A stretch of 35,890 nucleotides of DNA, taken from the IMG/VR virus record IMGVR_UViG_2909303794_000009, one strand, 5' to 3'. Below the pieces are notes generated by a model. The model was not told where the DNA came from. It saw only the letters and a list, made by a program, of their open reading frames with translations, and made no database searches. Source of the DNA: a virus. Taxonomy: Duplodnaviria > Heunggongvirae > Uroviricota > Caudoviricetes. Within the stretch, counting starts at the first letter, position 1. Each line of letters starts with the position of its first letter. Shown here in pieces: positions 13,110-35,890 of this stretch. Both the position numbers and the translations under genes were made by a program.

Positions 13110-13536
13110 ACCGGACTCCTCCTGCGATCCCTTCTGATACTGTCATCAGCATTACGTCATCCTCCGTCATGTCCGCCACATCCGGGGAAGCGGGGATAAC
13201 TTCATTCCCGTCCGGGCCAAAGCGGACACCTCCGGCAAGCCCTGCCGCTTTCTGCATCAGCACATCATCTTCAGGCTCTTCGTCAGCCTCGCGCCGGTTA
13301 AGCAGACTGAAATCCAGCGGATGCATATCCGGATCGCTGAAAAACAGGCTGAGCACGGTGTACGTCAGCCCGGAAAAGTGCATATCCAGCAGAACATCAT
13401 GAAAATAATGGGTACTGTAAAAGCGGTGCCAGTCGGCATACTCCGTGGATGACATCCCGGCAAGCATGGCACGCCAGTCGGGTCGCCCCATCTCACGCGC
13501 CAGTTTCAGGGCAAAACTCAGCTCACCGTCGAACAC
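13102..13536 (-). CDS. T: Tail assembly chaperone T frame (made as a G-T fusion by -1 frameshift)
   Basis: 144-codon frame MFDGELSFALKLAREMGRPDW... overlapping the 3' end of G by 19 nt; lambda T-like. Confidence 0.8.
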   Translation of the reverse strand: MFDGELSFALKLAREMGRPDWRAMLAGMSSTEYADWHRFYSTHYFHDVLLDMHFSGLTYTVLSLFFSDPDMHPLDFSLLNRREADEEPEDDVLMQKAAGLAGGVRFGPDGNEVIPASPDVADMTEDDVMLMTVSEGIAGGVRYG

Positions 13537-13940
13537 TTTCCCGCAAAAACAGGCTCTGCAGGCCCGGCGTCCTCTGTCTGTTCAGGGGCATTATTCACCA
13601 CAAACTCATACATACCGGACAGCCGGTACACCACGTTTTCAGCATGAGAAATTGCCTCCGTGGGCCAGGTGGTAAGCACTTCCTGCTCAATTTGTTTAAC
13701 GGCTTCATTCATGGACGGCATCTGCGTCTTCTGCGGATGGTTATGCCACAGGGACATCGCCACCACAAAAGCGCCGGTTCTGATGGCGTCTTCCACAGTA
13801 AACTTCCGATTGCTGTCTGACTCCGCCTGTTCTGCCTGCCGTTTCATCAGGGCGAGATGCTCAATACGCTGCAGGGCTGACAGTTCAGAAAGCGTGACGG
13901 TCACACCGTTATGTTCAAATGATTCGGTTTTCAGGAACAT
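13518..13940 (-). CDS. G: Tail assembly chaperone G (140 aa)
   Basis: MFLKTESFEHNGVTVTLSELSALQRIEHLALMKRQAEQ... lambda G-like; ends just past the slippery site. Confidence 0.85.
   Translation of the reverse strand: MFLKTESFEHNGVTVTLSELSALQRIEHLALMKRQAEQAESDSNRKFTVEDAIRTGAFVVAMSLWHNHPQKTQMPSMNEAVKQIEQEVLTTWPTEAISHAENVVYRLSGMYEFVVNNAPEQTEDAGPAEPVFAGKCSTVS
13536..13542 (-). promoter_or_regulatory. Programmed -1 ribosomal frameshift slippery heptamer GGGAAAG (G to G-T)
   Basis: Minus-strand GGGAAAG lies a few codons before the G stop, exactly where the T frame opens; conserved lambdoid G-T frameshift arrangement. Confidence 0.6.
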
Positions 13941-22937: not shown

Positions 22938-23457
22938 TCAGCAACCCCGGTATCAGTTCATCCAGCGCGGCTGCTTTGTTCATGGCTTTGATGATATCCC
23001 GTTTCAGGAAATCAACATGTCGGTTTTCCAGTTCCGGAAAACGCCGCTGCACCGACAGGGGGATCCCGTCGAGAATACTGGCAATTTCACCTGCGATCCG
23101 CGACAGCACGAAAGTACAGAATGCGGTTTCCACCACTTCAGCGGAGTCTCTGGCATTTTTCAGCTCCTGTGCGTCGGCCTGCGCACGCGTAAGTCGATGG
23201 CGTTCGTACTCAATAGTCCCTGGCTGGAGATCTGTCTCGCTGGCCTGCCGCAGTTCTTCAACTTCCCGGCGCAGCTTTTCGTTCTCAATTTCAGCATCCC
23301 TTTCGGCATACCATCTTATAACGGCGGCAGAGTCATAAAGCACCTCATTACCCTTGCCACCGCCTCGCAGAACGGGCATTCCCTGTTCCTGCCAGTTCTG
23401 AATGGTACGGATACTCGCACCGAAAATGTCAGCCAGCTGCTTTTTGTTGACTTCCAT
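22912..23457 (-). CDS. Nu1: Terminase small subunit Nu1 (181 aa)
   Basis: MEVNKKQLADIFGASIRTIQNWQEQGMPV... wHTH N-terminus; lambda Nu1-like; first gene after cos. Confidence 0.9.
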
Positions 23458-23634
23458 TGTTCATTCCACGGCCAAAAACAGAGAAAGGAAACGACAGAGG
23501 CCCAAAAGCTCGTTTTCAGCACCTGTCGTTTCCTTTCTTTTCAGAGGGTATTTTAAATAAAAACATCAAGTTACGACGAAGAAGAACGGAAACGCCTTAA
23601 ACCGGAAAATTTTCATAAATAGCGAAAACCCGCG
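23458..23634. other. cosB region (terminase small-subunit and IHF binding region between cosN and Nu1)
   Basis: Minus-strand sequence from cosN to the Nu1 ATG matches the lambda left-end sequence as recalled (…CGCGGGTTTTCGCTATTTATGAAAATTTTCCGGTTTAAGGCGTTTCCGTTCTTCTTCGTC…). Confidence 0.6.
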
Positions 23635-23646
23635 AGGTCGCCGCCC
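23635..23646. other. cosN: 12-nt cohesive-end sequence GGGCGGCGACCT (minus-strand orientation)
   Basis: Plus strand AGGTCGCCGCCC at ~23635-23646, flanked by …CGACAGGTTACG (lambda right-end sequence) on the other side. Confidence 0.8.
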
Positions 23647-23845
23647 CGTAACCTGTCGGATCGCCGGAAAGGACCCGCAAAATGATAATAATTATCATCT
23701 GCATGTCACAACGTGCATCTACGCCATCAAACCACGTCAAATAATCAATTATGACGCAGGTATCATATTAATTGATCTGCATCAACTTAACGTAAAAACA
23801 ACTTCAGACAATACAAATCAGCGACACTGAATACGGGACAACCTC

Positions 23846-24079
23846 ATGTCAACGAAGAACAGAACCCGCAGAACAACAACCCGCAACATCCGCTTTCCTA
23901 ACCAAATGATTGAACAAATTAACATCGCTCTTGATCAAAAAGGGTCCGGGAATTTCTCAGCCTGGGTCATTGAAGCCTGCCGCCGGAGACTGTGCTCAGA
24001 AAAAAGAGTTTCTCCTGAAGCAAACAAAGAAAAGAGTGACATTACTGAATTGCTCAGAAAACAGATCAGACCAGATTGA
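23846..24079 (+). CDS. Small basic protein with ribbon-helix-helix-like N-terminal region (lambda right-end small ORF-like), 77 aa
   Basis: MSTKNRTRRTTTRNIRFPNQMIEQINIALDQKGSGNFSAWVIEACRRRL... has a strand-helix-helix pattern like Arc/CopG; AT-rich; opposite strand to the late genes. Confidence 0.55.
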   Translation: MSTKNRTRRTTTRNIRFPNQMIEQINIALDQKGSGNFSAWVIEACRRRLCSEKRVSPEANKEKSDITELLRKQIRPD

Positions 24080-24120
24080 AGCAATTTAGATAATCGTGCA
24101 GACTACGCCCCTCATATCAC

Positions 24121-24546
24121 ATGGAAGGTACTACAATGGCTCAGGTTGCCATTTTTAAACAAATATTCGATAAAGTGCGAAATAATTTAAACTATCACTG
24201 GTTTTATTCTGAACTAAAACGTCACAATGTCTCACATTACATTTACTATTTAGCCACAGAGAATATTCATCTTGTTCTTGAAAACGATAATACGGTTTTA
24301 ATAAAAGGACAGGGTAAGGTTGTAAATGTAAGATTTTCAAAAAATAAATGCCTTATAGAAGCCACCTTAAAAGGATTCAAATCAGGAGAGTTATCATTTT
24401 ACGAATACAGGAAAAATCTTGCTACAGCAGGGGTTTTCAGATGGATTACAAATATCCACGAAAACAAAAGGTATTACTATACCTTTGATAATTCATTACT
24501 CTTTACTGAGAACATTCAGAACACTACACAAATATTTCCGCACTAA
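24121..24546 (+). CDS. DUF1398-like putative envelope protein (lambda right-end ORF / YbcV-like), 141 aa
   Basis: …[38 protein letters not shown]-terminus resembles the uncharacterised lambda ORF adjacent to cos; low GC; same strand as the preceding small ORF. Confidence 0.55.
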
Positions 24547-24832
24547 ATCATAACGTCCGGTTTCTTCCGTGCCAGAACCGGACTCGCTGGCATGATGAAA
24601 TATGTGTACCCGGTAACCCCGGTGTGCATCGTTTTTGATTATTCCCACACACTCGCGCAGAAGGAGTTCCCCGTCGGGCTACGGTCTCTGTTAATACGGG
24701 AATACGGCGACGATACAGCGCATGATGTGTCAGGCTTGAATACCTTTATCCTTTAAAAGGGATATCAGTTAAGTTATCCCGTGTAGGGTATAAGCCATTA
24801 TCAAGCCCACCCGTAGATAGGCTTTGTAATGG

Positions 24833-25090
24833 CTACTTCGCTTTTGCTTCCGCTCGCTTACGCCGGCGCTCTTCTTTCCTCTCGGCTTTTGCCATGTCCA
24901 TGAATGCCTGCATGATCGAGTTCCGCATCATGTAGCTAACAAAGTGATGATTGACACAGCCGTTGAGGCGCAGCTGCTCGCCAAACTCATCCACCGAGGC
25001 CAATGCTTCCATCATGCCCTTCTCACCTTTCATGAACTCTGAGAAGTCACGCCCCGCTCTGGAGGCGCATTCAATGACACGATCACTCAT
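24833..25090 (-). CDS. Hypothetical protein (85 aa), translationally coupled to the upstream KilA-N frame
   Basis: ATG overlaps the TGA of the preceding frame (ATGA); Lys/Arg/Glu-rich C-terminus; no family recognised. Confidence 0.4.
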   Translation of the reverse strand: MSDRVIECASRAGRDFSEFMKGEKGMMEALASVDEFGEQLRLNGCVNHHFVSYMMRNSIMQAFMDMAKAERKEERRRKRAEAKAK

Positions 25091-25583
25091 CCCGGAAGCC
25101 CGGGGATCGTAATCTGCAGCTGGTTAGCCAGGGAGTTAATCTCAGCGACCAACACTGGCTTCGTATAGCGCCATGCCGCCAGCCCTTGTCCGCAGAAGCT
25201 CGCCATATCTTTTTTCTGATCAAACTCATGACACTTCATATTGAGCTGTGCACTTAAGCTGTTGCGATGCTGAAGTTCTCCGGTGAAGTAGTCATCCAGG
25301 ACTTTATAGGCTGCATATTTAAATCCGGGGTTTAGCCATGCTGCATAATCATAAGCAACAAACTTCCCGCCATATGTTCCACCGTGTACACCGCGCTCAG
25401 TAAAAACACAGATTCGTGGTTTTTCTCCAGCTCGGCTAAGAACTCTTTGGTCTGCTTGTTTCGCAGGTAGTGGTACGGAGATTCAGATTCACTTTTACCA
25501 CTGGCTTTCCACATATCAGTGAGGCAGATCATGCCATCTTCACCGATACGAATTGGTTGATTGAAGAGGGTTAATGATTTCAT
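25087..25583 (-). pseudogene. KilA-N domain protein gene split by a frameshift
   Basis: Frame A (25332..25583) MKSLTLFNQPIRIGEDGMICLTDMWKASGK... continues in a second frame as …ERGVHGGTYGGKFVAYDYAAWLNPGFKYAAYKVLDDYF… (KilA-N signature); frames switch at an A5/T5 run near 25412-25416. Confidence 0.55.
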
Positions 25584-25699
25584 AGCGTGTACCTACTCTT
25601 TGAAATGAACCTTTGCCGCACAGGAAACCAGCCCACCGAGGCTCGCCAGCACTAACTGGTATCTTCAAAGGCCCATTCCAAAGGGGCAGGTTCGGTGTA

Positions 25700-25772
25700 A
25701 AAAAAACATGCGTTGCGGTACGCATTTATTGCAAAAAAGCCCCGCATCACGAGGCTCATTAAATGGACTTTG
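25700..25772 (-). terminator. Two tandem putative intrinsic terminators downstream of Rz
   Basis: Minus strand: GCCTCG-TGATG-CGGGGC followed by TTTTTTG, then ATGCGT-ACCGCA-ACGCAT followed by GTTTTTTTT. Confidence 0.45.
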
Positions 25773-25787
25773 TGATTTGCAAAAAAA

Positions 25788-26225
25788 TTATTTCAGGCAT
25801 TGCGTCCTGATGTACTCCTGCAGGTAGTTAACCTGCGCGGTTATCCTGTCGATTCCACTTCGGAGACGGTAATAATTGAGTTCAGCATCTGCTGTAAGTC
25901 TTGGGCTTTCTCCATCGCCCATGCTGCTGGCTCCGGTCTTTGACTTTGCACATGAGGCGGCGACTTGCAGCCGCTTACGCCCAGCAGAAACATCATCACG
26001 GAGACTTTCGATAGTCGCGTTAGCATCAGCAAGCTCCTTTGTATATCTGGCGTCGAGTTCTGCTACGTCACGTTGACGCTTCTGCATGTCAGCGATGATG
26101 GATGTGGCTTTGTCGCGCTGGGCTTTGTAGGCGATGGCGTTATCACGGTAATGATTAACAGCCCATAACAGGCAGACGATGATGCAGATAACCAGAGCGG
26201 AGATAATCGCGGTGACTCTGCTCAT
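25788..26225 (-). CDS. Rz: Spanin inner-membrane subunit Rz (145 aa)
   Basis: [30 protein letters not shown]... N-terminal TM helix plus coiled coil; lambda Rz-like; 4-nt overlap with R. Confidence 0.85.
25841..26032 (-). CDS. Rz1: Spanin outer-membrane lipoprotein Rz1, embedded in the +1 frame of Rz
   Basis: 63-aa nested ORF with signal/lipobox …[10 protein letters not shown] followed by a Pro-containing segment; same embedded architecture as lambda Rz/Rz1. Confidence 0.7.
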
Positions 26226-26698
26226 GCCTCAATCTCTCTGACCGTTCCGCCTGCTTCTTTGAATTTTGAAATCAGACTGTCAGCCTTATGCTCGAACTGA
26301 CCATAACCAGCGCCCGGCAATGAAGCCCAGATATTGCTGCAACGGTCGATTGCCTGACGAATATCACCGCGGTCAATCATCGGTAAAGCGCCACGCTCTT
26401 TAATCTGTTGCAATGCCACAGCGTCCTGGCTTTTCGGAGAGAAGTCTTTCAGGCCAAGCTGCTTACGATAGGCATCCCACCAACGGGAAAGAAGCTGGTA
26501 ACGTCCGGCTGCTGTTGATTTGAGTTTTGGGTTTAGCGTGACAAGTTTGCGAGGGTGATCGGAGTAATCAGTAAACAGTTCACCACCGACAATAACATCA
26601 TAACCGTGGTTACGTGTCGGTTGTCGCCCGTTATCCGTTCCTTCTGACCATGCAACCATATCCAGGAAAGCTTTACGCTGGGAATTTAGTACCTGCAT
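26222..26698 (-). CDS. R: Endolysin R (lytic transglycosylase, 158 aa)
   Basis: …[73 protein letters not shown]… is near-identical to lambda R as recalled. Confidence 0.9.
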
Positions 26699-26701
26699 AA
26701 A

Positions 26702-27037
26702 TTACTCCTTCGAGCTACCAAACTTGTTACCGATTACTCTCATTGCAGCCCCACGAATAGCATCGACACCGATCAGCCCCACCCCACCACCAATGGCAAC
26801 AGAAAGCGATTTAGGCCATCCGACATACTCAAGCGCGGATGCAAAGGTCAACGTCAGAGCGCCACATAGCAAAATCTCGAGCGTTTTTCGCTTCCAGCCA
26901 CCACCACCGCCAAAATAGGCGATGCGCAAACCAGCCATAACAATCGACATAATCACTGCGCCCAGCGGCGTATCTCCACGCCACCAGCTCTGAAACAACT
27001 CCAGCCAGTCCGGCCAGGTATTTGGGTTATGAGGCAT
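26702..27037 (-). CDS. S: Holin (lambda S family but divergent), ~111 aa from the MPHNPNTW start
   Basis: Three hydrophobic segments (GAVIMSIVMAGLRIAYF, LEILLCGALTLTFASAL, VAIGGGVGLIGVDAI) and a charged C-terminus; loosely alignable to lambda S; GAGGTGA RBS upstream of the ATG at 27037. The ORF track extends to 27133, overlapping the methyltransferase 3' end. Confidence 0.7.
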   Translation of the reverse strand: MPHNPNTWPDWLELFQSWWRGDTPLGAVIMSIVMAGLRIAYFGGGGGWKRKTLEILLCGALTLTFASALEYVGWPKSLSVAIGGGVGLIGVDAIRGAAMRVIGNKFGSSKE

Positions 27038-27113
27038 TTCGTCATCTCTCACCTCGCGATATTTGCGGGTGCTGTGTTGGAAATAAAAAGGCCACGCAAC
27101 GTGGCCACCAGAA

Positions 27114-28166
27114 TTATTTCCCCACCAGTTCACTTACCTCTTTCACCGTCTGATTAAACCGCTCTGACTCAAGTTCAACACCTAACGCCCGACGCCCCAG
27201 CGCCATTGCCGCTTTTATTGTGGAACCGGATCCCATAAAGAAATCAGCAACCAGATCGCCTTGTCGACTACTGGCACTGATTATTTGCCGGAGCATATCC
27301 GCAGGCTTCTCACACGGATGTTTACCCGGGTAGAACTGAACGGGTTTATGCGTCCAGACATCGGTATAAGGCACGGAAACTGATACGGAGAAATAGCGCC
27401 GGAGAGTTTTAAACTCATCCAGCAATTCAGAATATTTGCGATTCAGTGAATCATAAGATGCCACCAGCTGGTGGTGTGGTTGTTCCAGTTGTTGTTCCTG
27501 AAATTTCTCTGCCGCTATACGGGAAAACAGTGCCTGCAACTTCCGGTAGTCAGCCTCATTCGGCAACTGCCACTGACTGGCACCAAACCAGTGGGAAACC
27601 ATATTTTTCTTACCAGTGGCTTCGGCAATCTGTTTTGCCGTTATACCCAGTTCGGCACGAGCATCCCTGAAATACGAAATCAGCGGTGCCATTATGTGCT
27701 GTTTGAGTTGACTTTCTTTTGCCGCATAGCCGTCACTTTTGCCGCGATATGGTCCCTGGTAATGTTCAGCAAACAGAACGCGTTCTGTTGCGGGAAAATA
27801 TGCGCGCAGACTTTCTTTATTACACCCGTTCCATCGTCCGGACGGCTTCGCCCAGATAATATGGTTAAGAACGTTGAAACGTTCACGCATCATGATCTCG
27901 ATATCAGATGCGAGGCGATGTCCACAGAACAGGTAAAGGCTTCCGGCAGGTTTCAGCACCCGCCAGAACTGAGCCAGACAGTGGTCCAGCCACTTCAGGT
28001 AATCTTCGTCCCCTTTCCACTGATTGTCCCAACCGTTGGGTTTCACCTTGAAGTACGGCGGATCGGTAACAATCAGGTCAATGGAATCATCAGGCAGGGA
28101 CTGAATAAAATGCAGGCAATCAGCGTTGATTAAATCAACACTGTTTATTTTCACAGTATTTTTCAT
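27114..28166 (-). CDS. Orphan DNA methyltransferase (N6-adenine/N4-cytosine type, beta-class motif order), 350 aa
   Basis: N-terminal catalytic motif IV DPPY (…IDLIVTDPPYF…) and C-terminal SAM-binding motif I (…DFFMGSGST…); no adjacent restriction endonuclease gene. Confidence 0.85.
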   Translation of the reverse strand: MKNTVKINSVDLINADCLHFIQSLPDDSIDLIVTDPPYFKVKPNGWDNQWKGDEDYLKWLDHCLAQFWRVLKPAGSLYLFCGHRLASDIEIMMRERFNVLNHIIWAKPSGRWNGCNKESLRAYFPATERVLFAEHYQGPYRGKSDGYAAKESQLKQHIMAPLISYFRDARAELGITAKQIAEATGKKNMVSHWFGASQWQLPNEADYRKLQALFSRIAAEKFQEQQLEQPHHQLVASYDSLNRKYSELLDEFKTLRRYFSVSVSVPYTDVWTHKPVQFYPGKHPCEKPADMLRQIISASSRQGDLVADFFMGSGSTIKAAMALGRRALGVELESERFNQTVKEVSELVGK

Positions 28167-28315
28167 GGATCAGTAAGCGTAACTCTGGTAGGCTCACTCT
28201 GCTTTTGCGCTAAAGCAGTGGGCCGTGGTTCGCTTGTGACCAGTAAGCATGAGCGAATGGCTGGCAGGTGCTACCAACACCCACCAGCCGCCCATTTTCA
28301 CAAATTAAAAGCCCT

Positions 28316-28510
28316 TCATTGCTGAAGGCGTCTGTAACAGCCGAACTGGTAATCTGCCAGCCCCGCCATAACCAGCTGGGTCAGTATTAACTGACAGCGT
28401 TCGCGTGAAAGGTATGTGTTTTGTGCAATCTCCCCGACTGTTGCCGGTTTGCCGTTTAATTCATTAAAAACAACTTTCGCCGTTTCTGTCATATCTAGCT
28501 GTTTTAGCAT
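28316..28510 (-). CDS. Small winged-helix DNA-binding protein, FaeA/PapI-like (64 aa)
   Basis: MLKQLDMTETAKVVFNELNGKPATVGEIAQNTYLSRERCQLILTQLVMAGLADYQ… has the small-regulator pattern (…G…T..EIA…..S….R..L..L…G.) seen in PapI/FaeA-type proteins; sits directly upstream of the methyltransferase. Confidence 0.45.
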   Translation of the reverse strand: MLKQLDMTETAKVVFNELNGKPATVGEIAQNTYLSRERCQLILTQLVMAGLADYQFGCYRRLQQ

Positions 28511-28627
28511 GTCTTTTTACCTTCATGGTTAACATGACATACCAATAACTCTTGTCTAAAAAGCCAGCAAGATAAAAAGTCAGTATTCACGACCACCAGC
28601 GTGTTTACCGTACTGCACCAGGTTTAC

Positions 28628-28657
28628 AGGTACAAAAAAACCCGCTCGACGGCGGGT
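28628..28657 (-). terminator. Putative intrinsic terminator (minus-strand orientation) between the porin and the late genes
   Basis: Minus strand ACCCGCC-GTCGA-GCGGGT followed by TTTTTTT. Confidence 0.5.
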
Positions 28658-28699
28658 TTAAGCTGTGTGGCGAAGTAACCACTCTTAACAGCATAACCA

Positions 28700-29084
28700 A
28701 TTTTTTACGTACGTAAACCTCTAAACAATATTTGTGAGAATGATATCGAGTGTTCAAAACACCACCACAATCACATAAGGAAAAATAAACAAATAATCAT
28801 TAAATAATTTCCGACGTTATTTTCAGTGAATTTAAATTAAAGAGATGAATTATAGAACACTTATAAATAACAACCTTTAATATAATTTAGCTACCAAATT
28901 TATTTTCTTTCAGAGAATAGTCATGCACAGCATGCATTAGAAAAAGTTCAGATAAAAATAGAGATCTAGATCACAATTTAAATAAGAATCTAAAACTTAC
29001 ATCTTGAATTAATCACATTGATTAGATGAATATTTGTCGCGCAGGGCATCATTTTTTAATAAATGTTCAAAAAAAGGTCTCACG
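28700..29084 (+). promoter_or_regulatory. AT-rich upstream regulatory region of the porin gene
   Basis: ~380 bp of very low GC with repeated TTTA/ACAT-type motifs (e.g. ACTTACATCTTGAATTAATCACATTGATTAGATG) resembling porin promoter/OmpR-box regions; no -10/-35 assigned. Confidence 0.3.
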
Positions 29085-30167
29085 ATGAAAAAATTAACAG
29101 TGGCAATTTCTGCTGTAGCTGCATCAGTACTGATGGCGATGTCTGCTCAGGCAGCTGAAATTTATAATAAAGACAGTAACAAGCTGGATCTGTACGGGAA
29201 AGTTAATGCTAAGCACTACTTCTCCTCTAATGATGCAGATGATGGTGATACTACTTATGCCCGTCTTGGCTTCAAAGGTGAAACCCAAATCAACGATCAA
29301 CTGACTGGTTTCGGTCAGTGGGAATATGAATTCAAAGGCAACCGCGCTGAATCTCAAGGTTCCTCCAAAGATAAAACCCGTCTTGCCTTCGCTGGCCTGA
29401 AATTCGGTGACTACGGCTCCATCGATTATGGCCGTAACTACGGTGTAGCATACGATATTGGTGCATGGACCGACGTTCTGCCAGAATTCGGTGGCGATAC
29501 CTGGACCCAAACAGATGTATTCATGACTGGTCGCACCACAGGTGTTGCAACTTATCGTAACAACGACTTCTTTGGTCTGGTTGATGGCCTGAACTTTGCA
29601 GCTCAGTATCAGGGCAAAAATGACCGAAATGAAGTAACTGAAGCTAATGGCGATGGTTTCGGTTTCTCAACTACTTATGAGTATGAAGGATTCGGCGTGG
29701 GTGCAACCTATGCTAAATCTGATCGCACTAATAATCAGGTTATCCTCGGTAACAACGGTCTGAATGCTTCTGGTAAAAATGCTGAAGTATGGGCAGCTGG
29801 TCTGAAATATGATGCGAACAACATCTATCTGGCCACCACCTATTCTGAAACCCAGAACATGACTGTTTTTGGTAATAACCATATTGCCAACAAAGCACAA
29901 AACTTCGAAGCTGTTGCACAATATCAGTTCGACTTCGGCCTGCGTCCATCCGTTGCTTACCTGCATTCTAAAGGAAAAGACTTGGGTGTTTGGGGTGATC
30001 AGGACCTGGTTGAATATGTTGATGTAGGTGCAACCTATTACTTCAACAAAAATATGTCCACTTTTGTTGACTACAAAATCAACCTGATTGATAAGAGCGA
30101 TTTCACGAAAGCATCTGGCGTTGCTACCGATGATATCGTTGCTGTAGGTATGGTTTACCAGTTCTAA
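29085..30167 (+). CDS. nmpC: Outer membrane general porin, NmpC/Lc/OmpC-family (360 aa with signal peptide)
   Basis: [40 protein letters not shown]… signal peptide and mature N-terminus, C-terminal …VAVGMVYQF; the ORF track begins 17 codons earlier at an alternative start codon. Confidence 0.85.
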
Positions 30168-30182
30168 TTTGATTACTAAAAG

Positions 30183-30225
30183 ATATGTTGTGGGAGGCTT
30201 TGCCTCCCCAACATATAAGTGGCTC
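30183..30225 (-). terminator. Candidate tR'-like terminator downstream of Q (minus-strand orientation)
   Basis: Minus strand ATATGTTGGGGAGGC-AAA-GCCTCCCACAACATAT followed by CTTTT; located ~130-170 nt downstream of the Q stop, as expected for a short pR' leader. Confidence 0.3.
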
Positions 30226-30304
30226 CCTCAAGCCACTTCCTTTAGAAGCACAACCTTGCTTCTAACTATACAAACCTTCTGTTATATATTACCCTTTATT
30301 TTTG

Positions 30305-30332
30305 GGGGCGCTTCAACGCCCCATTTTTAATA
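30305..30332 (+). terminator. Putative intrinsic terminator of the porin gene
   Basis: Plus strand GGGGCG-CTTCAA-CGCCCC followed by ATTTTTAAT. Confidence 0.45.
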
Positions 30333-30355
30333 ACTTTTAGTAAATAATTGGCGTA

Positions 30356-30739
30356 TTAATTAGAGTTATTAACAACGATATCCATCTCTAACCGGATATC
30401 TAATGCCATTAACATCCCTTCAATTATGCCCTCAGCCTTTTGTAACCTTTTCCCGATATAACCATCAGAGCAGCAATGCTTACCTGCCAGTGACATGAAT
30501 GTCATACCGACTATATAATAATCTACTAATAAATCATGCAAATCGCTGTTGTTCTTTTTCAGACGGGCCATGCACCCGCAAATGATCATCGCGTCATCGT
30601 CACAACATTGCGGGCGAGATTTTACTTTTGAAGGAATTAATCCCTTAAAACCGGCGGCAATGGACGACCAGGTCACATCTTCATGATTATTAGCCGCCCA
30701 CGCTCCCCAACGCTCAAGAACCATCTGAATATCACGCAT
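30356..30739 (-). CDS. Q: Late-gene antiterminator Q, phage 82/QuuD-type (127 aa from [11 protein letters not shown] start)
   Basis: [33 protein letters not shown]… with Cys cluster (…[12 protein letters not shown]…); GGAG RBS 8 nt upstream; unlike lambda Q; the ORF track begins 5 codons earlier. Confidence 0.75.
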
Positions 30740-30821
30740 CAACTTACTCCACAAAAATCAGACCAAAACGCCAATTACAAGCAAAAATCAACAAAACAGT
30801 ATTAGTTGATTGTTATCTCTG

Positions 30822-30962
30822 ACTTCATACTCCTGCTCCTGTCAGGGTTTTGGCGTAACTCTTCAGTATTCGGTAATCGGTCAAAACAGAACCGGGGAAA
30901 CGATATAAGCGCAGACGCCCCCAGCGGTGGCGAAGAAGTTCTGCCATATTAAACTCAAACAT
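30822..30962 (-). CDS. ylcG: Small protein YlcG-like (46 aa), start overlapping the rusA stop
   Basis: Hand-translated: [45 protein letters not shown]; below the ORF-track size cut-off; lies between rusA and Q. Confidence 0.5.
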
Positions 30963-31324
30963 CATTCATTCCCCATTTCGGTGATGGTCAGTTCCAGCCT
31001 CCCACCTTTGGTAACAGGCATCTTCACAACGCGGTAATCAACGACCTGAGCATCATCCAGCCAGAAACCTGCTTTAGTGAGTGCGTCAAAAGCGGCTTTT
31101 TGCAGATTATCCAGGTCACGGCGACGGCGATCCGGCATGTGGCACTCAATGCGGATTTTCACAGGCATAGCCAGGCCGATATCCAGTATTGCGTTTTTAA
31201 TGATTCGGGCGACGTTATCGCGGTATGCCTGCCCCTCTGCGCTGACGTGCGTGCGCCCGCGATTATGGCGGTAATAGCGATTATTGCTCGGAGGCCAGGG
31301 TAATGTGATGCTGTAGGTATTCAC
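30962..31324 (-). CDS. rusA: Holliday-junction resolvase RusA (120 aa)
   Basis: [41 protein letters not shown]… RusA family; nin-region position upstream of Q. Confidence 0.85.
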
Positions 31325-31446
31325 GCCTTAATAACCCCCTCTTTCAGCCAGATAACCTGTGTTCTCGCCATACCTTCCAGCGCGCATTCTTTTGCATATG
31401 CAGCATCGACTTGCTTGGCATGCCCTTTACCGGCAATCTTCTGTAT
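31321..31446 (-). pseudogene. 3' remnant of a ybcO-like nin-region gene
   Basis: Only ~41 in-frame codons (…[40 protein letters not shown]) with the stop overlapping the rusA start; an in-frame TAG lies immediately upstream and no plausible start is present. Confidence 0.4.
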
Positions 31447-31530
31447 GCGCTAAACCTAGATAGAATCCACTCTGTGCACATTGAAGCCCGCTCTATGCTT
31501 CCTTTCAGGTATTGAAGGGATTGAGATGGG

Positions 31531-31872
31531 CTAAGCATTATTGGCCTCCTGCATCAGGAGAAAGACAATCATGGCGGCGCGGAGAGGTCTGGTATCAAAT
31601 ATTGGGCTTACGCCTTTTGCATCCACACACCATTCAGTTAACTGGTCTAAGATAGAAATCCTGTATTTCTCAATAATCGGCCATGAAGCGCTCGGATCAT
31701 TGCAGTAGTCAGGCAAATGATTTAATGGCTCAAAAGTTGTATCAGCATTTCCGTAATACCATTTGTTGGTGTTATTCCCTGATGTTTCCGGTTTACTTGC
31801 CCAAAGGCCTTTAAAAATTATGTCTCCTACCATTCTGTTAATTTCAAAATCACTTAACTGTGAATAATCCAT
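31531..31872 (-). CDS. Hypothetical nin-region phage protein (113 aa from MDYSQL start)
   Basis: ORF-track frame 31531..31914; GAGGAA RBS fits the second ATG ([17 protein letters not shown]…); no family recognised; ~110 bp from the IS left end. Confidence 0.45.
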
Positions 31873-32037
31873 TGTCATTTCCTCGCACGATATCTTAGCC
31901 ACCGGATATCCCACAGGTGAGCTGTGTAATTGAAGGTTTTTACGTCAGATTCTTTTGGGATTGGCTTGCGTTTATTTCTGGAGTGAACCGCCCCGGGAAT
32001 CCTGGAGACTAAACTCCCTGAGAAAGAGGTAAACAGG

Positions 32038-32364
32038 ATGACTAAAAATACACGTTTTTCCCCCGAGGTCCGTCAACGGGCAGTTCGTATGGTTCTGGAA
32101 AGTCAGGGCGAATATGACTCTCAATGGGCGGCAATTTGTTCCATTGCCCCAAAGATTGGCTGTACACCAGAGACTCTGCGTGTGTGGGTTCGTCAGCATG
32201 AGCGGGATACCGGGAGTGGTGATGGTGGACTCACCACCGCTGAACGTCAGCGTCTGAAAGAGCTGGAACGTGAAAATCGTGAACTGCGCCGCAGTAACGA
32301 TATCCTTCGCCAGGCTTCCGCTTATTTTGCGAAGGCGGAGTTCGACCGCCTCTGGAAAAAATAA
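32038..32364 (+). CDS. IS3-family transposase OrfA (HTH, 108 aa)
   Basis: [59 protein letters not shown]… recognised as IS629-group OrfA; ends in an A-rich run (A AAA AAT AA) overlapping the orfB start. Confidence 0.85.
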
Positions 32365-33251
32365 TGCCGCTGCTGGATAAGCTGCGTGAGCAGTACGGGG
32401 TCGGACCGGTATGCAGTGAACTGCATATTGCCCCGTCAACGTATTACCACTGTCAGCAACAGCGACATCATCCTGATAAACGCAGTGCCCGTGCTCAGCG
32501 CGATGACTGGCTGAAGAGAGAGATACAGCGCGTATACGATGAAAATCATCAGGTGTACGGTGTGCGTAAAGTCTGGCGCCAGTTGTTACGCGAAGGTATC
32601 AGGGTGGCCAGATGTACAGTGGCGCGCCTCATGGCGGTTATGGGACTTGCCGGTGTTCTCCGGGGTAAAAAGGTCCGTACTACCGTCAGCCGGAAAGCCG
32701 TTTCCGCAGGCGACCGCGTAAACCGTCAGTTCGTGGCAGAACGTCCTGACCAGCTGTGGGTGGCTGATTTTACTTACGTCAGCACATGGCAGGGCTTCGT
32801 CTATGTGGCGTTCATCATTGATGTGTTTGCCGGATGTATCGTGGGGTGGCGAGTCTCATCGTCTATGGAAACGACATTCGTGCTGGATGCACTGGAGCAG
32901 GCGTTGTGGGCCCGTCGGCCGTCCGGCACAGTCCATCACAGTGATAAAGGTTCTCAGTATGTATCACTGGCCTATACGGAGCGACTAAAAGAAGCAAAAC
33001 TGCTGGCATCAACAGGGAGTACAGGTGACTCGTATGACAACGCGATGGCGGAGAGCATCAATGGTCTTTACAAAGCGGAGGTAATACACCGTAAGAGCTG
33101 GAAAAACCGTGCAGAAGTGGAACTGGCCACACTCACGTGGGTGGACTGGTATAACAATCGACGATTGCTGGGAAGGCTGGGTCATATCCCTCCGGCAGAA
33201 GCAGAAAAAGCTTATTATGCTTCCATCAGAAACGATGATCTGGCAGCCTGA
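32364..33251 (+). CDS. IS3-family transposase OrfB (DDE integrase core, 295 aa)
   Basis: …LWVADFTYVSTWQGFVYVAFIIDVFAGCIVGW…HSDKGSQYVS…DNAMAESINGLYKAEVI… DDE-type catalytic core. Confidence 0.85.
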   Translation: MPLLDKLREQYGVGPVCSELHIAPSTYYHCQQQRHHPDKRSARAQRDDWLKREIQRVYDENHQVYGVRKVWRQLLREGIRVARCTVARLMAVMGLAGVLRGKKVRTTVSRKAVSAGDRVNRQFVAERPDQLWVADFTYVSTWQGFVYVAFIIDVFAGCIVGWRVSSSMETTFVLDALEQALWARRPSGTVHHSDKGSQYVSLAYTERLKEAKLLASTGSTGDSYDNAMAESINGLYKAEVIHRKSWKNRAEVELATLTWVDWYNNRRLLGRLGHIPPAEAEKAYYASIRNDDLAA

Positions 33252-33295
33252 GTTCACAGATAAAACACTCTCCAGGAAAACCGGGGCGGTTCATA

Positions 33296-33423
33296 TTCCC
33301 TCCTCCGGTTAAGGATGGAAGAGAGTATCTGTTCCACGAATCAGCGGTAAAGGTTGACTTAAATCGACCAGTAACAGGTAGCCTTTTGAAGAGGATCAGA
33401 AATGGGAAGAAGGCGAAGTCATG
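33296..33423 (+). pseudogene. xis: Excisionase xis, 5'-truncated remnant (C-terminal ~42 codons only)
   Basis: Frame immediately after the IS right end reads FPPPVKDGREYLFHESAVKVDLNRPVTGSLLKRIRNGKKAKS*, the lambda Xis C-terminus, with its stop overlapping the int start; the N-terminal ~30 codons are absent. Confidence 0.7.
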
Positions 33424-34472
33424 AGCGCCGGGATTTACCCCCTAACCTTTATATAAGAAACAATGGATATTACTGCTACAGGGACCCAAGGACGGGTAAA
33501 GAGTTTGGATTAGGCCGAGACAGGCGAATCGCAATCACTGAAGCTATACAGGCCAACATTGAGTTATTTTCAGGACACAAACACAAGCCTCTGACAGCGA
33601 GAATCAACAGTGATAATTCCGTTACGTTACATTCATGGCTTGATCGCTACGAAAAAATCCTGGCCAGCAGAGGAATCAAGCAGAAGACACTCATAAATTA
33701 CATGAGCAAAATTAAAGCAATAAGGAGGGGTCTGCCTGATGCTCCACTTGAAGACATCACCACAAAAGAAATTGCGGCAATGCTCAATGGATACATAGAC
33801 GAGGGCAAGGCGGCATCAGCCAAGTTAATCAGATCAACACTGAGCGATGCATTCCGAGAGGCTATAGCTGAAGGCCATATAACAACAAACCCGGTCGCAG
33901 CCACTCGCGCTGCAAAATCAGAGGTAAGGAGATCAAGACTTACGGCTGACGAATACCTGAAAATTTATCAAGCAGCAGAATCATCACCATGTTGGCTTAG
34001 ACTTGCAATGGAACTGGCTGTTGTTACCGGGCAGCGAGTTGGTGATTTATGCGAAATGAAGTGGTCTGATATCGTAGATGGATATCTTTATGTCGAGCAA
34101 AGCAAAACAGGCGTAAAAATTGCCATCCCAACAACATTGCATGTTGATGCTCTCGGGATATCAATGAAGGAAACACTTGATAAATGCAAAAAGATTCTTG
34201 GCGGAGAAACCATAATTGCATCTACTCGTCGTGAACCGCTTTCATCCGGCACAGTATCAAGGTATTTTATGCGCGCACGAAAAGCATCAGGTCTCTCCTT
34301 CGAAGGGGATCCGCCAACCTTTCACGAGTTGCGCAGTTTGTCTGCAAGACTCTATGAGAAGCAGATAAGCGATAAATTTGCTCAACATCTTCTCGGGCAT
34401 AAGTCGGACACCATGGCATCACAGTATCGTGATGACAGAGGCAGGGAGTGGGACAAAATTGAAATCAAATAA
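33402..34472 (+). CDS. int: Integrase (tyrosine recombinase), lambda Int (356 aa)
   Basis: MGRRRSHERRDLPPNLYIRNNGYYCYRDPRTGKEFGLGRDRRIAITEAIQANIELF… essentially identical to lambda Int as recalled; followed by the att site. Confidence 0.95.
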   Translation: MGRRRSHERRDLPPNLYIRNNGYYCYRDPRTGKEFGLGRDRRIAITEAIQANIELFSGHKHKPLTARINSDNSVTLHSWLDRYEKILASRGIKQKTLINYMSKIKAIRRGLPDAPLEDITTKEIAAMLNGYIDEGKAASAKLIRSTLSDAFREAIAEGHITTNPVAATRAAKSEVRRSRLTADEYLKIYQAAESSPCWLRLAMELAVVTGQRVGDLCEMKWSDIVDGYLYVEQSKTGVKIAIPTTLHVDALGISMKETLDKCKKILGGETIIASTRREPLSSGTVSRYFMRARKASGLSFEGDPPTFHELRSLSARLYEKQISDKFAQHLLGHKSDTMASQYRDDRGREWDKIEIK

Positions 34473-34575
34473 TGATTTTATTTTGACTGATAGTGACCTG
34501 TTCGTTGCAACAAATTGATAAGCAATGCTTTTTTATAATGCCAACTTAGTATAAAAAAGCAGGCTTCAACGGATT
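34473..34575. other. Prophage attachment site attL: P' arm plus 15-bp core GCTTTTTTATACTAA (core ~34546..34560) joined to the bacterial arm
   Basis: Plus strand …CAAATTGATAAGCAATGCTTTTTTATAATGCCAAC-TTAGTATAAAAAAGC-AGGCTTCAACGG…; the reverse complement reads bacterial arm, then core, then lambda P' arm. Confidence 0.85.
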
Positions 34576-34606
34576 CATTTTTCTATTTCATAGCCCGGAG
34601 CAACCT

Positions 34607-35890
34607 GTGAACACATTTTCAGTTTCCCGTCTGGCGCTGGCATTGGCTTTTGGCGTGACGCTGACCGCCTGTAGCTCAACCCCGCCCGATCAACGTCCTT
34701 CTGATCAAACCGCGCCTGGTACCTCTTCTCGCCCGATTCTGTCGGCAAAAGAAGCGCAGAATTTCGATGCTCAACACTATTTTGCATCCCTGACACCAGG
34801 TGCTGCAGCGTGGAATCCTTCCCCGATTACCCTGCCTGCGCAACCTGACTTTGTTGTCGGCCCGGCGGGCACTCAAGGTGTAACGCATACCACGATTCAG
34901 GCGGCGGTAGATGCGGCAATTATCAAGCGTACCAACAAGCGCCAGTATATTGCCGTGATGCCTGGTGAGTATCAGGGAACGGTATATGTCCCTGCCGCTC
35001 CGGGTGGAATTACTCTGTACGGTACAGGTGAAAAACCGATTGATGTGAAGATTGGGCTTTCCCTTGATGGTGGCATGAGCCCTGCCGACTGGCGTCACGA
35101 CGTCAACCCGCGCGGCAAATATATGCCAGGTAAACCAGCGTGGTATATGTACGATAGCTGCCAGAGCAAACGCAGCGACAGTATCGGTGTTCTCTGCTCT
35201 GCGGTCTTCTGGTCACAAAACAATGGCCTGCAACTGCAAAATCTGACCATCGAAAACACGCTGGGCGATAGCGTAGATGCAGGTAACCATCCGGCGGTGG
35301 CACTGCGTACTGATGGTGACCAGGTACAGATTAACAACGTTAACATTCTCGGTCGTCAGAACACCTTCTTTGTCACCAACAGCGGTGTGCAGAACCGTCT
35401 GGAAACGAATCGTCAGCCGCGTACGCTGGTGACCAACAGCTACATTGAAGGGGATGTGGATATCGTTTCTGGTCGCGGCGCAGTGGTGTTCGATAACACC
35501 GAATTCCGCGTGGTGAACTCACGTACTCAGCAAGAAGCGTATGTGTTTGCACCGGCTACGCTGTCCAACATTTACTACGGTTTCCTCGCCGTAAACAGCC
35601 GTTTCAATGCTTTCGGTGATGGTGTGGCGCAACTGGGCCGCTCGCTGGATGTTGATGCCAATACCAACGGTCAGGTGGTGATCCGTGATAGCGCCATCAA
35701 CGAAGGTTTTAACACGGCTAAACCGTGGGCCGATGCGGTGATCTCTAATCGTCCGTTTGCGGGTAATACCGGCAGCGTAGATGATAACGACGAAATACAG
35801 CGCAATCTGAATGACACTAACTACAACCGCATGTGGGAATACAATAACCGCGGCGTGGGTAGTAAAGTGGTTGCAGAGGCGAAGAAGTAA
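34607..35890 (+). CDS. ybhC: Host outer-membrane lipoprotein YbhC (pectinesterase-like, 427 aa)
   Basis: (V/M)NTFSVSRLALALAFGVTLTAC lipoprotein signal; right-handed beta-helix-like repeats; recognised as the chromosomal gene flanking the lambda attachment site on the gal side. Confidence 0.85.
   Translation: MNTFSVSRLALALAFGVTLTACSSTPPDQRPSDQTAPGTSSRPILSAKEAQNFDAQHYFASLTPGAAAWNPSPITLPAQPDFVVGPAGTQGVTHTTIQAAVDAAIIKRTNKRQYIAVMPGEYQGTVYVPAAPGGITLYGTGEKPIDVKIGLSLDGGMSPADWRHDVNPRGKYMPGKPAWYMYDSCQSKRSDSIGVLCSAVFWSQNNGLQLQNLTIENTLGDSVDAGNHPAVALRTDGDQVQINNVNILGRQNTFFVTNSGVQNRLETNRQPRTLVTNSYIEGDVDIVSGRGAVVFDNTEFRVVNSRTQQEAYVFAPATLSNIYYGFLAVNSRFNAFGDGVAQLGRSLDVDANTNGQVVIRDSAINEGFNTAKPWADAVISNRPFAGNTGSVDDNDEIQRNLNDTNYNRMWEYNNRGVGSKVVAEAKK

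Follow-up and report, generated by a model that had tools for sequence, protein, structure and literature searches.

The lambda-like prophage at the att-lambda site of E. coli 14EC007 most likely lost its early region through a deletion adjacent to an insertion sequence (IS) of the IS629 group in a once-complete prophage, a reading to which we assign a probability of roughly 60%. The DNA analysed here, referred to as the window, is a stretch of 35,890 nucleotides from this strain, whose accession is CP024131; the prophage lies between ybhB/bioA and ybhC, and its neighbouring genes match the expectation for the att-lambda site. Where the IS now sits, about 12.4 kb have probably been deleted, from about codon 22 of ninE to codon 30 of xis. 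In all likelihood the deletion took out ren, P, O, cII, cro, cI, N, kil, gam, bet and exo with the operators and promoters, the rest of the nin region that lies upstream of ninE, small accessory genes and the start of xis. The prophage now measures 36.6 kb, compared with about 47.7 kb before the deletion; its present size equals the lower packaging limit of lambda or falls slightly short of it.

The insertion sequence and its junctions

A complete IS629-group insertion sequence of the IS3 family, 1,310 bp in length, occupies positions 31984..33293 on the plus strand. It starts with TGAACCGCCCCGG and finishes with CCGGGGCGGTTCA, the ends being TGAACC...GGTTCA. Comparison of the left end with the reverse complement of the right end delimits terminal inverted repeats of 25 bp, IRL (TGAACCGCCCCGGGAATCCTGGAGA; 31984..32008, plus strand) and IRR (ending ...CCGGGGCGGTTCA; 33269..33293, plus strand), which match at 22/25 positions and are perfect over the terminal 13 nt. 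The element contains orfA (32038..32364, plus strand; 108 aa), which encodes a helix-turn-helix domain (Pfam HTH_Tnp_1, E = 1.4e-12), and orfB (32364..33251, plus strand; 295 aa), which encodes the DDE/rve catalytic domain (Pfam HTH_21, E = 5e-18; rve, E = 1e-25). In the list of open reading frames the orfB frame is -1 relative to orfA, and the RefSeq annotation describes a programmed-frameshift transposase. An ALIL pseudoknot, which stimulates frameshifting in elements of the IS3411/IS629 type, was identified at 32319..32435 (plus strand) by a full-length match (1-117) to Rfam RF01497, with 120.9 bits compared with a gathering score of 50. With orfA/orfB, the inverted repeats and the ALIL pseudoknot all intact, the IS looks functional from its sequence.

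These features agree with the identification of an IS629-like element in the original prediction: the length falls within 1.2-1.5 kb, the ends are TG...CA, orfA and orfB are in 0/-1 phases, and the HTH and DDE core is present. The right end of the IS had been placed at 33423, which has to be corrected, as the IS ends at 33293 and positions 33422-33424 are the stop codon of the xis remnant. The IS is 100.000% identical (1310/1310) to the copy in strain 14EC001 and 99.77% identical to one copy in O157:H7 Z1830. Lower values were obtained with a partial copy in O157:H7 Z1830 and with the O111 11128 copy (95.4% each; IS1203 family by annotation), and with the copies in TUM9812 and J6 (95.5%; annotated only as IS3 family). 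The isoform criterion of ISfinder is at least about 95% nucleotide identity to IS629. The naming as IS629-like or IS629 group is thus safe; an identity of 95.4-95.5% is borderline for an isoform, and the exact name is less secure.

At the left junction the IS adjoins a ninE remnant (31875..31983, minus strand; RefSeq "NinE family protein, missing N-terminus") that retains the C-terminal 35 codons and the stop codon, the N-terminal 22 codons or so having been lost at the junction. The alignment with the ninE genes of phages ev099 and mEp332 breaks exactly after ...CTGGAG, and the contiguous blastn match to ev099 stops at 31983. The hexamer CTGGAG recurs inside both inverted repeats of the IS, which we judged to be a chance 6-mer occurrence. 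Away from the left end of the IS, the ninE remnant is followed by NinX (31531..31872, minus strand; Pfam Phage_P22_NinX, E = 7e-17), a ninF-like ORF of 64 aa (31344..31538, minus strand), rusA (30962..31324, minus strand; RefSeq annotation), ylcG and the late-gene antiterminator Q of the QuuD type (30356..30739, minus strand; Pfam Phage_antitermQ, E = 1e-53; RefSeq quuD). The ninF-like ORF gave no Pfam match and lies at the same position as ev099 gp59 and an unnamed ORF of mEp332. The whole of window 28636-31983 aligns contiguously to ev099 with 97.1% identity. Of the nin-region genes that had been proposed to the left of the IS, rusA, ylcG and Q were confirmed and the "hypothetical" gene is NinX, but the ninE remnant adjoining the IS had been overlooked. 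The ninF-like ORF overlaps the fragment listed there as "ybcO remnant" (31321-31410, annotated DUF1364/ybcO remnant); the same arrangement is observed in the functional phages ev099 and mEp332, so it does not indicate decay here.

At the right junction a xis remnant (33294..33424, plus strand) comprises codons 31-72 and two bases of codon 30, and matches positions 32-77 of 77 of Pfam Exc. It is 100% identical to residues 30-72 of ev099 Xis (tblastn), with the breakpoint of the alignment lying between ...GTGCAGGA and TATTCC. The remnant has no start codon, its N-terminal DNA-binding part is gone, and the list of open reading frames holds no ORF of at least 40 aa in its frame. It is followed by an intact lambda-type integrase gene, int (33402..34472, plus strand; 356 aa), whose product shows 100% amino acid identity to ev099 Int; the flank containing it (33294-34561) is identical at the DNA level to mEp332 (100%) and 98.5% identical to lambda. 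The attL core GCTTTTTTATACTAA is an exact match at 34546..34560 (minus strand; 0 expected by chance), and in the comparison with functional phages the phage homology stops at 34560. The earlier description of about 42 codons of xis followed by an intact int and attL is therefore supported by the Pfam Exc match, the identity to ev099 and the perfect att core.

Extent of the missing early region

Alignment of the IS flanks to lambdoid phages placed the endpoints of the deletion in ninE and xis. On the left (31325-31983) the identity amounts to 99.8% with ev099, 99.1% with mEp332 and 100% with both Chlobot and ev243; on the right (33294-34560) it amounts to 99.8% with ev099 and 100% with mEp332. 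The distance between the two breakpoints in the functional phages is 12,396 bp in ev099, about 12.3 kb in mEp332 and about 12.7 kb in Chlobot, and in all three the interval is filled with canonical early genes; that of ev099 holds exo, bet, gam, kil, N, cI, cro, cII, O, P, ren, ninB and a methyltransferase gene. When the 26 ev099 proteins encoded from int to ninE were compared by tblastn with the whole window, the only real matches were to ninE', xis' and int, and neither a homologue nor an annotation was found in the window for cI, cro, cII, N, O, P, ren, ninB, exo, bet, gam or kil. A borderline match to a DksA-like protein (E = 0.001) lies inside the J tail gene and looks like a chance match. 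The claim that everything between xis and the nin region is missing was thus sustained by both tblastn and annotation, and no homologue of an early gene is present between the IS and int.

The att-lambda prophage of strain TUM9812 (NZ_CP128926.1) is a sibling of that of 14EC007, with 99.95% identity over 8.66 kb from Nu1 to NinX and 100% over int-ybhC, and it shares the KilA-N frameshift and the insertion site. Unlike the 14EC007 prophage, it keeps the immunity, replication and recombination genes (P'-O-cII-cro-cI...exo); missing from it are NinX'-P', the head-tail operon in full and DUF1382'-xis-int', and its DUF1382'-int' joint is bridged by an IS629 variant different from that of 14EC007. 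Because this sibling still carries the early region, the region was present in the recent common ancestor. Both breakpoint regions are lost in TUM9812, which makes it uninformative on intermediates. An early region that was inverted or moved rather than deleted was considered and rejected. Both truncated genes, ninE and xis, lost the part that faces the deleted interval, and they face the joint in an arrangement colinear with the phage map; additionally, the sole copy of an early region in 14EC007 belongs to the torS prophage and is more diverged (98.4-99.0%, compared with 99.95% for the sibling backbone). The repressor of this torS prophage in 14EC007, where cI was lost at att-lambda, is identical to that of the TUM9812 sibling, and the torS site is empty in TUM9812, which kept cI at att-lambda.

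The att cores are perfect at both ends of the prophage (window 34546-34560 and record 3407855-3407869), the attR core being located 2.06 kb to the left of the window start. The P and P' arms are conserved, and the P' arm is identical to that of ev099 attP. The cosN cohesive-end sequence GGGCGGCGACCT was found as an exact match at 23635..23646 (minus strand), upstream of the small terminase gene. All late coding sequences are annotated as intact, and the genes for head, tail and lysis follow one another as in lambda; 97% of window 1-24900 aligns to phage PhiR30_1 at about 97% identity, with 90-95% for other isolated lambda-like phages. Still present are int, attL, attR, cos and Q, all intact, together with a lysis cassette and a head-tail operon in colinear order, in agreement with the apparently intact late operon and integrase of the original prediction. 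The cargo on the attR side (a diguanylate cyclase gene and tfa) was found in 627 genomes and is a poor marker of close relatives.

Origin of the joint

The trinucleotides bordering the IS are GAG at its left end and TAT at its right end, with no direct repeat; the difference between the flanks had been noticed earlier, and a target-site duplication is indeed absent. Neither of the two findings named earlier as refuting the prediction, early genes between the IS and int or a target-site duplication, was thus obtained. Simple insertions of the IS629 group generate a target-site duplication of 3 bp (sometimes 4 bp). Such a 3-bp duplication was observed in all three simple insertions of the same IS group that we analysed: CCC at the IS in int of Z1830, which is 99.8% identical to the present one, TAT at the copy in cIII of the torS prophage of 14EC007, and GAC at the copy in the lysozyme gene of O111 11128. 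The last of these lies next to int, and the corresponding IS-int matches in O111, considered as a parallel deletion, are really a simple insertion. The lack of a target duplication at the 14EC007 IS accordingly points to a deletion joint and is not evidence against membership in the IS3 family.

Among 5,426 complete E. coli genomes, both junctions were found as contiguous matches in only one, the source 14EC007 itself; the other high-coverage matches were in two pieces, with the IS located hundreds of bases from the flank. The same 5,426 genomes contained neither an IS-free ninE'-xis' joint nor an intermediate with a single IS and its duplication at either breakpoint.

In the explanation that we favour, either ninE or xis would first have received one IS629-group copy at its breakpoint. 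All DNA between the other end of the IS and the second breakpoint would then have been removed in an aberrant, one-ended event dependent on transposase, in which case the IS would have been retained and the original 3-bp duplication destroyed. IS629-adjacent deletions are reported for E. coli O157 (Ooka, 2009; Kusumoto, 2011). Deletions by IS629 are enhanced by the IEE protein (PMC9943667). According to the overview by Chandler (10.1101/2023.06.07.543989), copy-out-paste-in transposition alone does not predict donor deletions, and an extra processing step is needed.

The earlier preference for an adjacent deletion over a simple insertion is upheld by the missing target duplication, but recombination between two IS copies gives an identical product, and the sequence cannot separate these two origins, which leave the same scar. 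Two IS629-group copies that had inserted independently, with the same orientation, into ninE (duplication GAG) and xis (duplication TAT) could have recombined in a RecA-dependent manner and looped out 12.4 kb together with one IS, which we regard as possible although distinctly less probable than an adjacent deletion. It predicts what is observed, namely one complete IS, GAG and TAT flanks and colinear flanking DNA. About 15-17 places in the 14EC007 genome match the IS629 group; the copy in cIII of the torS prophage makes double hits in one prophage plausible, and IS629 insertions are reportedly biased towards prophages (Ooka, 2009). However, none of the 5,426 genomes has one of the two sites, or the pair of them, occupied by an IS, and the IS is no detectable chimera, given its 1310/1310 identity to the 14EC001 copy, a comparison that is uninformative if the parent copies were identical.

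Two-copy recombination is further burdened by four att-lambda prophages that carry a single IS at a joint, since each of them would need two insertions in the same orientation. Besides the 14EC007 prophage, these are the gam'-IS-ninB joint of 14EC001, the ybcN upstream-IS-xis' joint of J6 and the DUF1382'-IS-int' joint of TUM9812, all bridged by the same IS group without a duplication. Among these at least four independent prophages the IS belongs to two variants and occurs in both orientations, the endpoints differ, and each deletion removes either the immunity/replication block or the xis/int block. It is conceivable, but in our view rather improbable, that such IS629-group-bridged losses of control modules represent a recurrent, directional disarmament of prophages and not random decay; if the IS, perhaps together with IEE, does favour such deletions, they would constitute a host-beneficial mechanism of immobilisation and would change the immunity landscape.

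We consider it very unlikely that the early region was lost in an earlier, IS-independent deletion and that the IS landed later on the ninE'-xis' joint without the normal duplication. Early-region deletions without an IS are common at att-lambda, as in O157:H7 Z1830 (bet'/ninE), and in PE164, F2_81 and E105 the methyltransferase gene/ninE lies within about 580 bp of xis. Nevertheless, this order of events demands a precise landing of the IS on the joint, the IS-free joint occurs in none of the 5,426 complete genomes, and the 3-bp duplication is missing although all three simple insertions of the group show one. The least credible alternative is an assembly artefact in which two identical IS copies around an intact early region were collapsed, as identical 1.3-kb repeats are classic collapse points; against it stand an assembly from PacBio RS II (10-kb library, HGAP3) and Illumina data (PMC6206212) that consists only of the chromosome and two plasmids (35 kb and 190 kb) with no orphan contig of about 13 kb, a search with the sibling early region that finds in 14EC007 only the diverged (98.4%) torS-prophage copy, and the analogous IS-bridged deletions in independent assemblies of three other strains.

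Consequences and comparison with known systems

By its gene content the prophage lacks a repressor and operators, N, an origin and O/P, as well as a functional xis. The int gene has probably also been deprived of its native promoters pL and pI, both of which the lambda map places beyond the breakpoint, and Q is now cut off from the pR/N-dependent transcription unit upstream of it. When 30200-34700 was scanned for promoters and terminators, the sites were no more numerous than in shuffled sequences, and at the ends of the IS there was no outward-facing promoter likely to drive Q or int; transcription running on from the IS into int is thus at most a conjecture. With the repressor, N, O/P and xis missing, the prophage is expected from its gene content to be incapable of SOS induction, replication or self-excision. 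The prediction of a defective prophage is thus consistent with its gene content, which includes neither repressor nor replication genes. The predicted lack of an excisionase applies in cis, where xis is truncated, but not to the genome as a whole, since an intact Xis is encoded by the torS prophage, and over its final 43 residues it does not differ from the sequence specified at the xis junction of the window. This Xis could act in trans on the att-lambda element, and the remaining parts of the latter would be usable only with such help in trans (torS Xis or a helper phage) or as material for recombination.

The 36.6-kb prophage should consequently be scored as defective despite its intact-looking structural genes and integrase, and prediction tools based on late genes and int would overcall it. 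Lambdoid phages that reside in the same cell or enter it could still recombine with its intact late genes, cos and att sites, or mobilise them. Being private to one genome, with a 99.95% identical sibling that decayed differently, it offers a clean, datable case of fast prophage decay.

The IS shares with O157 IS629, a copy-out-paste-in element of the IS1203/IS3411 group, its length of 1,310 bp, the TG...CA ends, the -1 frameshift between orfA and orfB and the ALIL pseudoknot; moreover, the near-identical Z1830 copy and two members with about 95% identity give a 3-bp duplication. As in the IS629-adjacent deletions of O157, the IS has stayed in place where several kb of a lambdoid prophage were deleted. 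It differs from the O157/O111-type IS629 in being only about 95.4-95.5% identical; the host is an eae-positive ST301 strain of serotype O180:H2, whereas the described IS629-adjacent deletions are from O157.

With the phages ev099 (NC_049953), mEp332 (PV340541) and Chlobot (PP925838) the prophage shares the int-xis-attP module (98.7-100% identity) and the ninE-NinX-ninF-like-rusA-ylcG-Q-porin module (97-100% identity), and with Chlobot and mEp332 also a largely colinear late operon. It differs from all three in the absence of their own early regions of 12.3-12.7 kb, and from ev099 additionally in a mosaic lysis and methyltransferase segment.

Inactivation or immobilisation of prophages by IS629-type elements was proposed for O157 over a decade ago, and the present case is an ordinary, well-documented type of event that confirms, and does not extend, the known IS-linked decay of prophages. 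The cryptic prophages DLP12 of K-12 and Sp3/CP-933K at att-lambda of O157:H7 likewise kept int and the nin-Q-lysis genes and lost immunity and replication functions in the course of IS-linked decay, but they are older and more eroded than the 14EC007 prophage. An Sp3-like structure can be observed at Z1830, which differs in that its early-region joint (bet'/ninE) contains no IS. The late operon of the 14EC007 prophage is still complete, and its deletion is observed in one sequenced genome only.

The prophage and its insertion sequence

The window is identical to the chromosome of E. coli 14EC007 (NZ_CP024131.1; record position = window position + 3,409,914), a clinical isolate from China (ST301 O180:H2, mcr-1-positive, eae-positive) whose PacBio RS II and Illumina assembly consists of one chromosome and two plasmids (PMC6206212). 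It covers the greater part of a lambda-like prophage integrated at att-lambda, the classical site, with ybhC starting at 34607, to the right of the prophage, and with ybhB and bioA just outside the window on the left side. A perfect 15-bp att core, GCTTTTTTATACTAA, is located at 34546-34560 and a second copy lies 2.06 kb to the left of the window start; based on the positions of the two cores, the prophage is 36.6 kb long, IS included. Relative to attP of phage ev099, both arms (P and P') are conserved. A cargo gene for a sensor diguanylate cyclase was observed between attR and the tail-fibre assembly gene, about 70 bp to the left of the window start (record 3408510-3409841; 12511-13842 in the comparison locus L002). 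The prophage belongs to a lambda-like att-lambda family that is very common, since its attR-side cargo module was detected in 627 of 5,426 complete E. coli genomes (coverage of at least 80%).

The IS (31984-33293; 1,310 bp) starts with TGAACCGCCCCGG and ends with CCGGGGCGGTTCA, and is bounded by 25-bp inverted repeats that agree at 22 of 25 positions. It carries orfA (32038-32364; Pfam HTH_Tnp_1), orfB in the -1 frame (32364-33251; Pfam HTH_21 and rve) and a full-length ALIL frameshift-stimulating pseudoknot of the IS3411/IS629 type (120.9 bits, threshold 50), and every structural feature of the IS3 family that was tested was found. It is identical to the copy of strain 14EC001 (1310/1310), 99.77% identical to one copy of O157:H7 Z1830, and 94.7-95.5% identical to the J6, TUM9812, O111 11128, partial Z1830 and second 14EC007 copies; two of these (O111 11128 and partial Z1830) are annotated in RefSeq as IS1203 family. 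Given these identities, the description "IS629-like" is fair. The original prediction had placed the end of the element at 33423, which is in fact the end of the xis remnant. The hexamer CTGGAG that adjoins the left end of the IS (31978-31983) also occurs at IS positions 19-24 of both inverted repeats (..TCCTGGAGA..), probably by chance.

Directly to the left of the IS, the last 35 codons and the stop codon of ninE (31875-31983, minus strand) are retained, annotated in RefSeq as an N-terminally truncated NinE family protein; this remnant had been overlooked in the first list of left-side genes. Further leftward are NinX (identified by Pfam Phage_P22_NinX), a 64-aa ninF-like ORF, rusA, ylcG, Q (QuuD type), a porin gene, a methyltransferase gene and the lysis cassette. 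What had been listed as a "ybcO remnant", annotated as a DUF1364 fragment (31321-31410), is a normal mosaic feature: the sequence containing it aligns contiguously to ev099 (97.1% over 3.35 kb) and the gene order around it is the same in mEp332, so that it is not damage specific to this prophage, both phages being functional. The OmpC/NmpC-like porin gene (29085-30167, plus strand) separates Q from the lysis cassette, is encoded on the strand opposite to those, and is also present in ev099 and mEp332. In the related prophage of strain TUM9812 it is broken by IS5, which recalls nmpC::IS5 of the K-12 prophage DLP12. The 350-aa DNA methyltransferase gene (27114-28166, minus strand) lies between the porin and holin genes, and this segment and the lysis genes are mosaic relative to ev099.

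On the right, the IS is directly followed by two bases and 42 codons of xis (residues 30/31-72; positions 32-77 of 77 of Pfam Exc), 100% identical to ev099 Xis over the retained stretch and with no in-frame start codon upstream. The following int gene is intact (356 aa, 100% identical to ev099 Int), and the whole right flank (33294-34561) shows 100% DNA identity to mEp332.

Extent of the deletion

Both IS flanks are present in several functional phages at 98.7-100% identity: the breakpoints are 12,396 bp apart in ev099 (left flank 99.8%, right flank 99.8%), about 12.3 kb apart in mEp332 (99.1% and 100%) and about 12.7 kb apart in Chlobot (100% and 98.7%). By alignment, the ninE breakpoint is ...TTTATTTCTGGAG/CGTTTCG and the xis breakpoint is ...GTGCAGGA/TATTCCC, the latter corresponding to lambda coordinate 28990/28991. 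The matching ev099 interval (record 28216-40611) contains, from the xis side, xis codons 1-29, several small accessory genes, exo, bet, gam and kil; then N, an NYN-domain gene, a LexA-family repressor gene, cro, cII, O, P and ren; and, on the ninE side, ninB, a DNA methyltransferase gene and the first ~22 codons of ninE. When all 26 proteins of this interval were compared by tblastn to the whole window, the only real matches were ninE', xis' (residues 30-72) and int, with no other early-region homologue, as had been predicted. One marginal DksA-like match inside the J tail gene (E = 0.001) looks fortuitous. With 12.4 kb restored and the IS removed, the ancestral prophage is estimated at about 47.7 kb, which is lambda-sized.

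A sibling prophage occupies the same site in strain TUM9812 from Japan (NZ_CP128926.1, 3522815-3551722, corresponding to window 22951-31608 and 33822-35890), with a backbone 99.95-100% identical: 4 mismatches in 8.66 kb from Nu1 through lysis and Q to NinX, and none in 2.07 kb from int to ybhC. Between those modules it retains P'-O-cII-cro-cI-sieB-ral-cIII-kil-gam-bet-exo. It has lesions of its own: a deletion joins NinX' to P', the head-tail operon is missing entirely (Nu1/J'), IS5 lies in the porin gene, and a further deletion, which took xis, joins DUF1382' to int', this last joint being bridged without duplication by another IS629 variant (95.5% identical). Since neither of the two prophages could have given rise to the other, their recent common ancestor must have been more complete, with the missing block still in place. 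The KilA-N domain gene (25087-25583, minus strand) is annotated as frameshifted in the window and is also frameshifted in TUM9812; because the lesion is common to both, it predates the IS-associated deletion. TUM9812, the sole close sibling, has lost both breakpoint regions.

Predicted function and the second prophage of 14EC007

The prophage has lost its repressor and operators, pL, pR, N, cII, cIII, the origin with O and P, Red/Gam and kil, and also the first 29-30 codons of xis, i.e. much of the Xis DNA-binding fold; the pI promoter lies beyond the breakpoint on the lambda map and is presumably lost as well. It does not qualify as a complete, inducible prophage. The expected defect is thus observed in the gene content (repressor, N, O/P and functional xis gone), from which we infer that the prophage would not be inducible via RecA-mediated repressor cleavage and would neither replicate nor excise on its own. 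The late operon and integrase appear intact, as proposed: the late region is colinear with isolated lambda-like phages, PhiR30_1 covering 97% of window 1-24900 at about 97% identity and several others 90-95%, and cosN is intact. Q has no upstream phage promoter, and a promoter scan detected no convincing outward promoter at the IS end. Since int is co-oriented with the transposase gene, with no predicted terminator between them, weak read-through expression of int from the IS is possible.

Outside the window, a second lambdoid prophage (NZ_CP024131.1, 3052289-3092441) is inserted at torS-torT, the integration site of HK022 (PMC9928086). Its ninB contains IS100, its cIII contains an IS629-like copy, and its Int is 75% identical to that of the window. 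Its Xis is intact (72 aa), the last 43 residues being identical to residues 30-72 encoded at the window xis junction. The Xis proteins of lambda and HK022 are functionally interchangeable; if this holds here, the torS prophage could supply Xis in trans, provided that the att-lambda int is expressed. The proposed absence of an excisionase is therefore correct in cis but not genome-wide. As for a trans-acting repressor of matching immunity, cI, Cro, CII and SieB of the torS prophage are identical to those of the TUM9812 sibling by RefSeq protein accession, with 99.0% DNA identity across 4.1 kb, so the genome probably encodes such a repressor. It is irrelevant to the deleted prophage, because no operators are left. 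TUM9812 keeps cI at att-lambda and has an empty torT-torS site (NZ_CP128926.1, 3150000-3199999), and 14EC007 shows the reverse, which suggests, from two genomes only, that immunity was lost before lysogenisation by a homoimmune phage.

Origin of the joint

In the retrieved sequences, every IS of the group that splits a gene into adjoining halves (n = 3) carries a 3-bp duplication: CCC in int of O157:H7 Z1830, TAT in cIII of the 14EC007 torS prophage and GAC in a lysozyme gene of O111 11128. None of the copies at deletion joints (n = 4) has such a duplication; the flanks are GAG/TAT in the window, as noted in the original prediction, TTA/AAG in TUM9812, AGG/ATT in 14EC001 (NZ_CP024127.1; 18811-20120 in locus L004) and AGG/GTC in J6 (NZ_CP195973.1; 12002-13311 in locus L003). 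In the last two, which are again independent att-lambda prophages, a single IS629-group copy stands in place of the immunity/replication block, with the order gam'-IS-ninB in 14EC001 (IS in the opposite orientation to that of the window) and ybcN-upstream-IS-xis' in J6 (xis breakpoint 25 nt upstream of that of the window). Early-region deletions free of an IS also occur at att-lambda, with a bet'/ninE joint in O157:H7 Z1830 (3318-3348 in locus L007) and with methyltransferase/ninE within about 580 bp of xis in PE164, F2_81 and E105.

Neither an IS-free ninE'-xis' joint nor an IS at either breakpoint alone was found in any of the 5,426 genomes. Together with the mismatched flanks, this ties the IS to the deletion. 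Deletion adjacent to a resident IS has been documented for IS629; one inserted copy, followed by a transposase-dependent deletion, would produce the observed joint. We favour this route, with a probability of roughly 0.6. Homologous recombination between two same-orientation copies would give exactly the same product, indistinguishable in sequence, but it presupposes two insertions into one prophage rather than a single one, and four independent att-lambda prophages carry the same single-IS scar; we regard it as the less likely course. Insertion into an older deletion is unlikely, given that the 3-bp duplication of simple insertions is absent here and that none of the 5,426 genomes carries the IS-free joint. 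Assembly collapse is also unlikely, given the long reads, the lack of an orphan contig and the fact that 14EC007 has no other early region than that of the torS prophage, which is more diverged.

The finding is real, and its original interpretation was essentially right. The joint is private to one genome and appears to be undescribed, the only paper found on the strain being concerned with antimicrobial resistance. Events of this kind are well known: that lambdoid prophages erode through IS elements is textbook knowledge, with the IS629 deletions of O157 and DLP12 in K-12 as examples.
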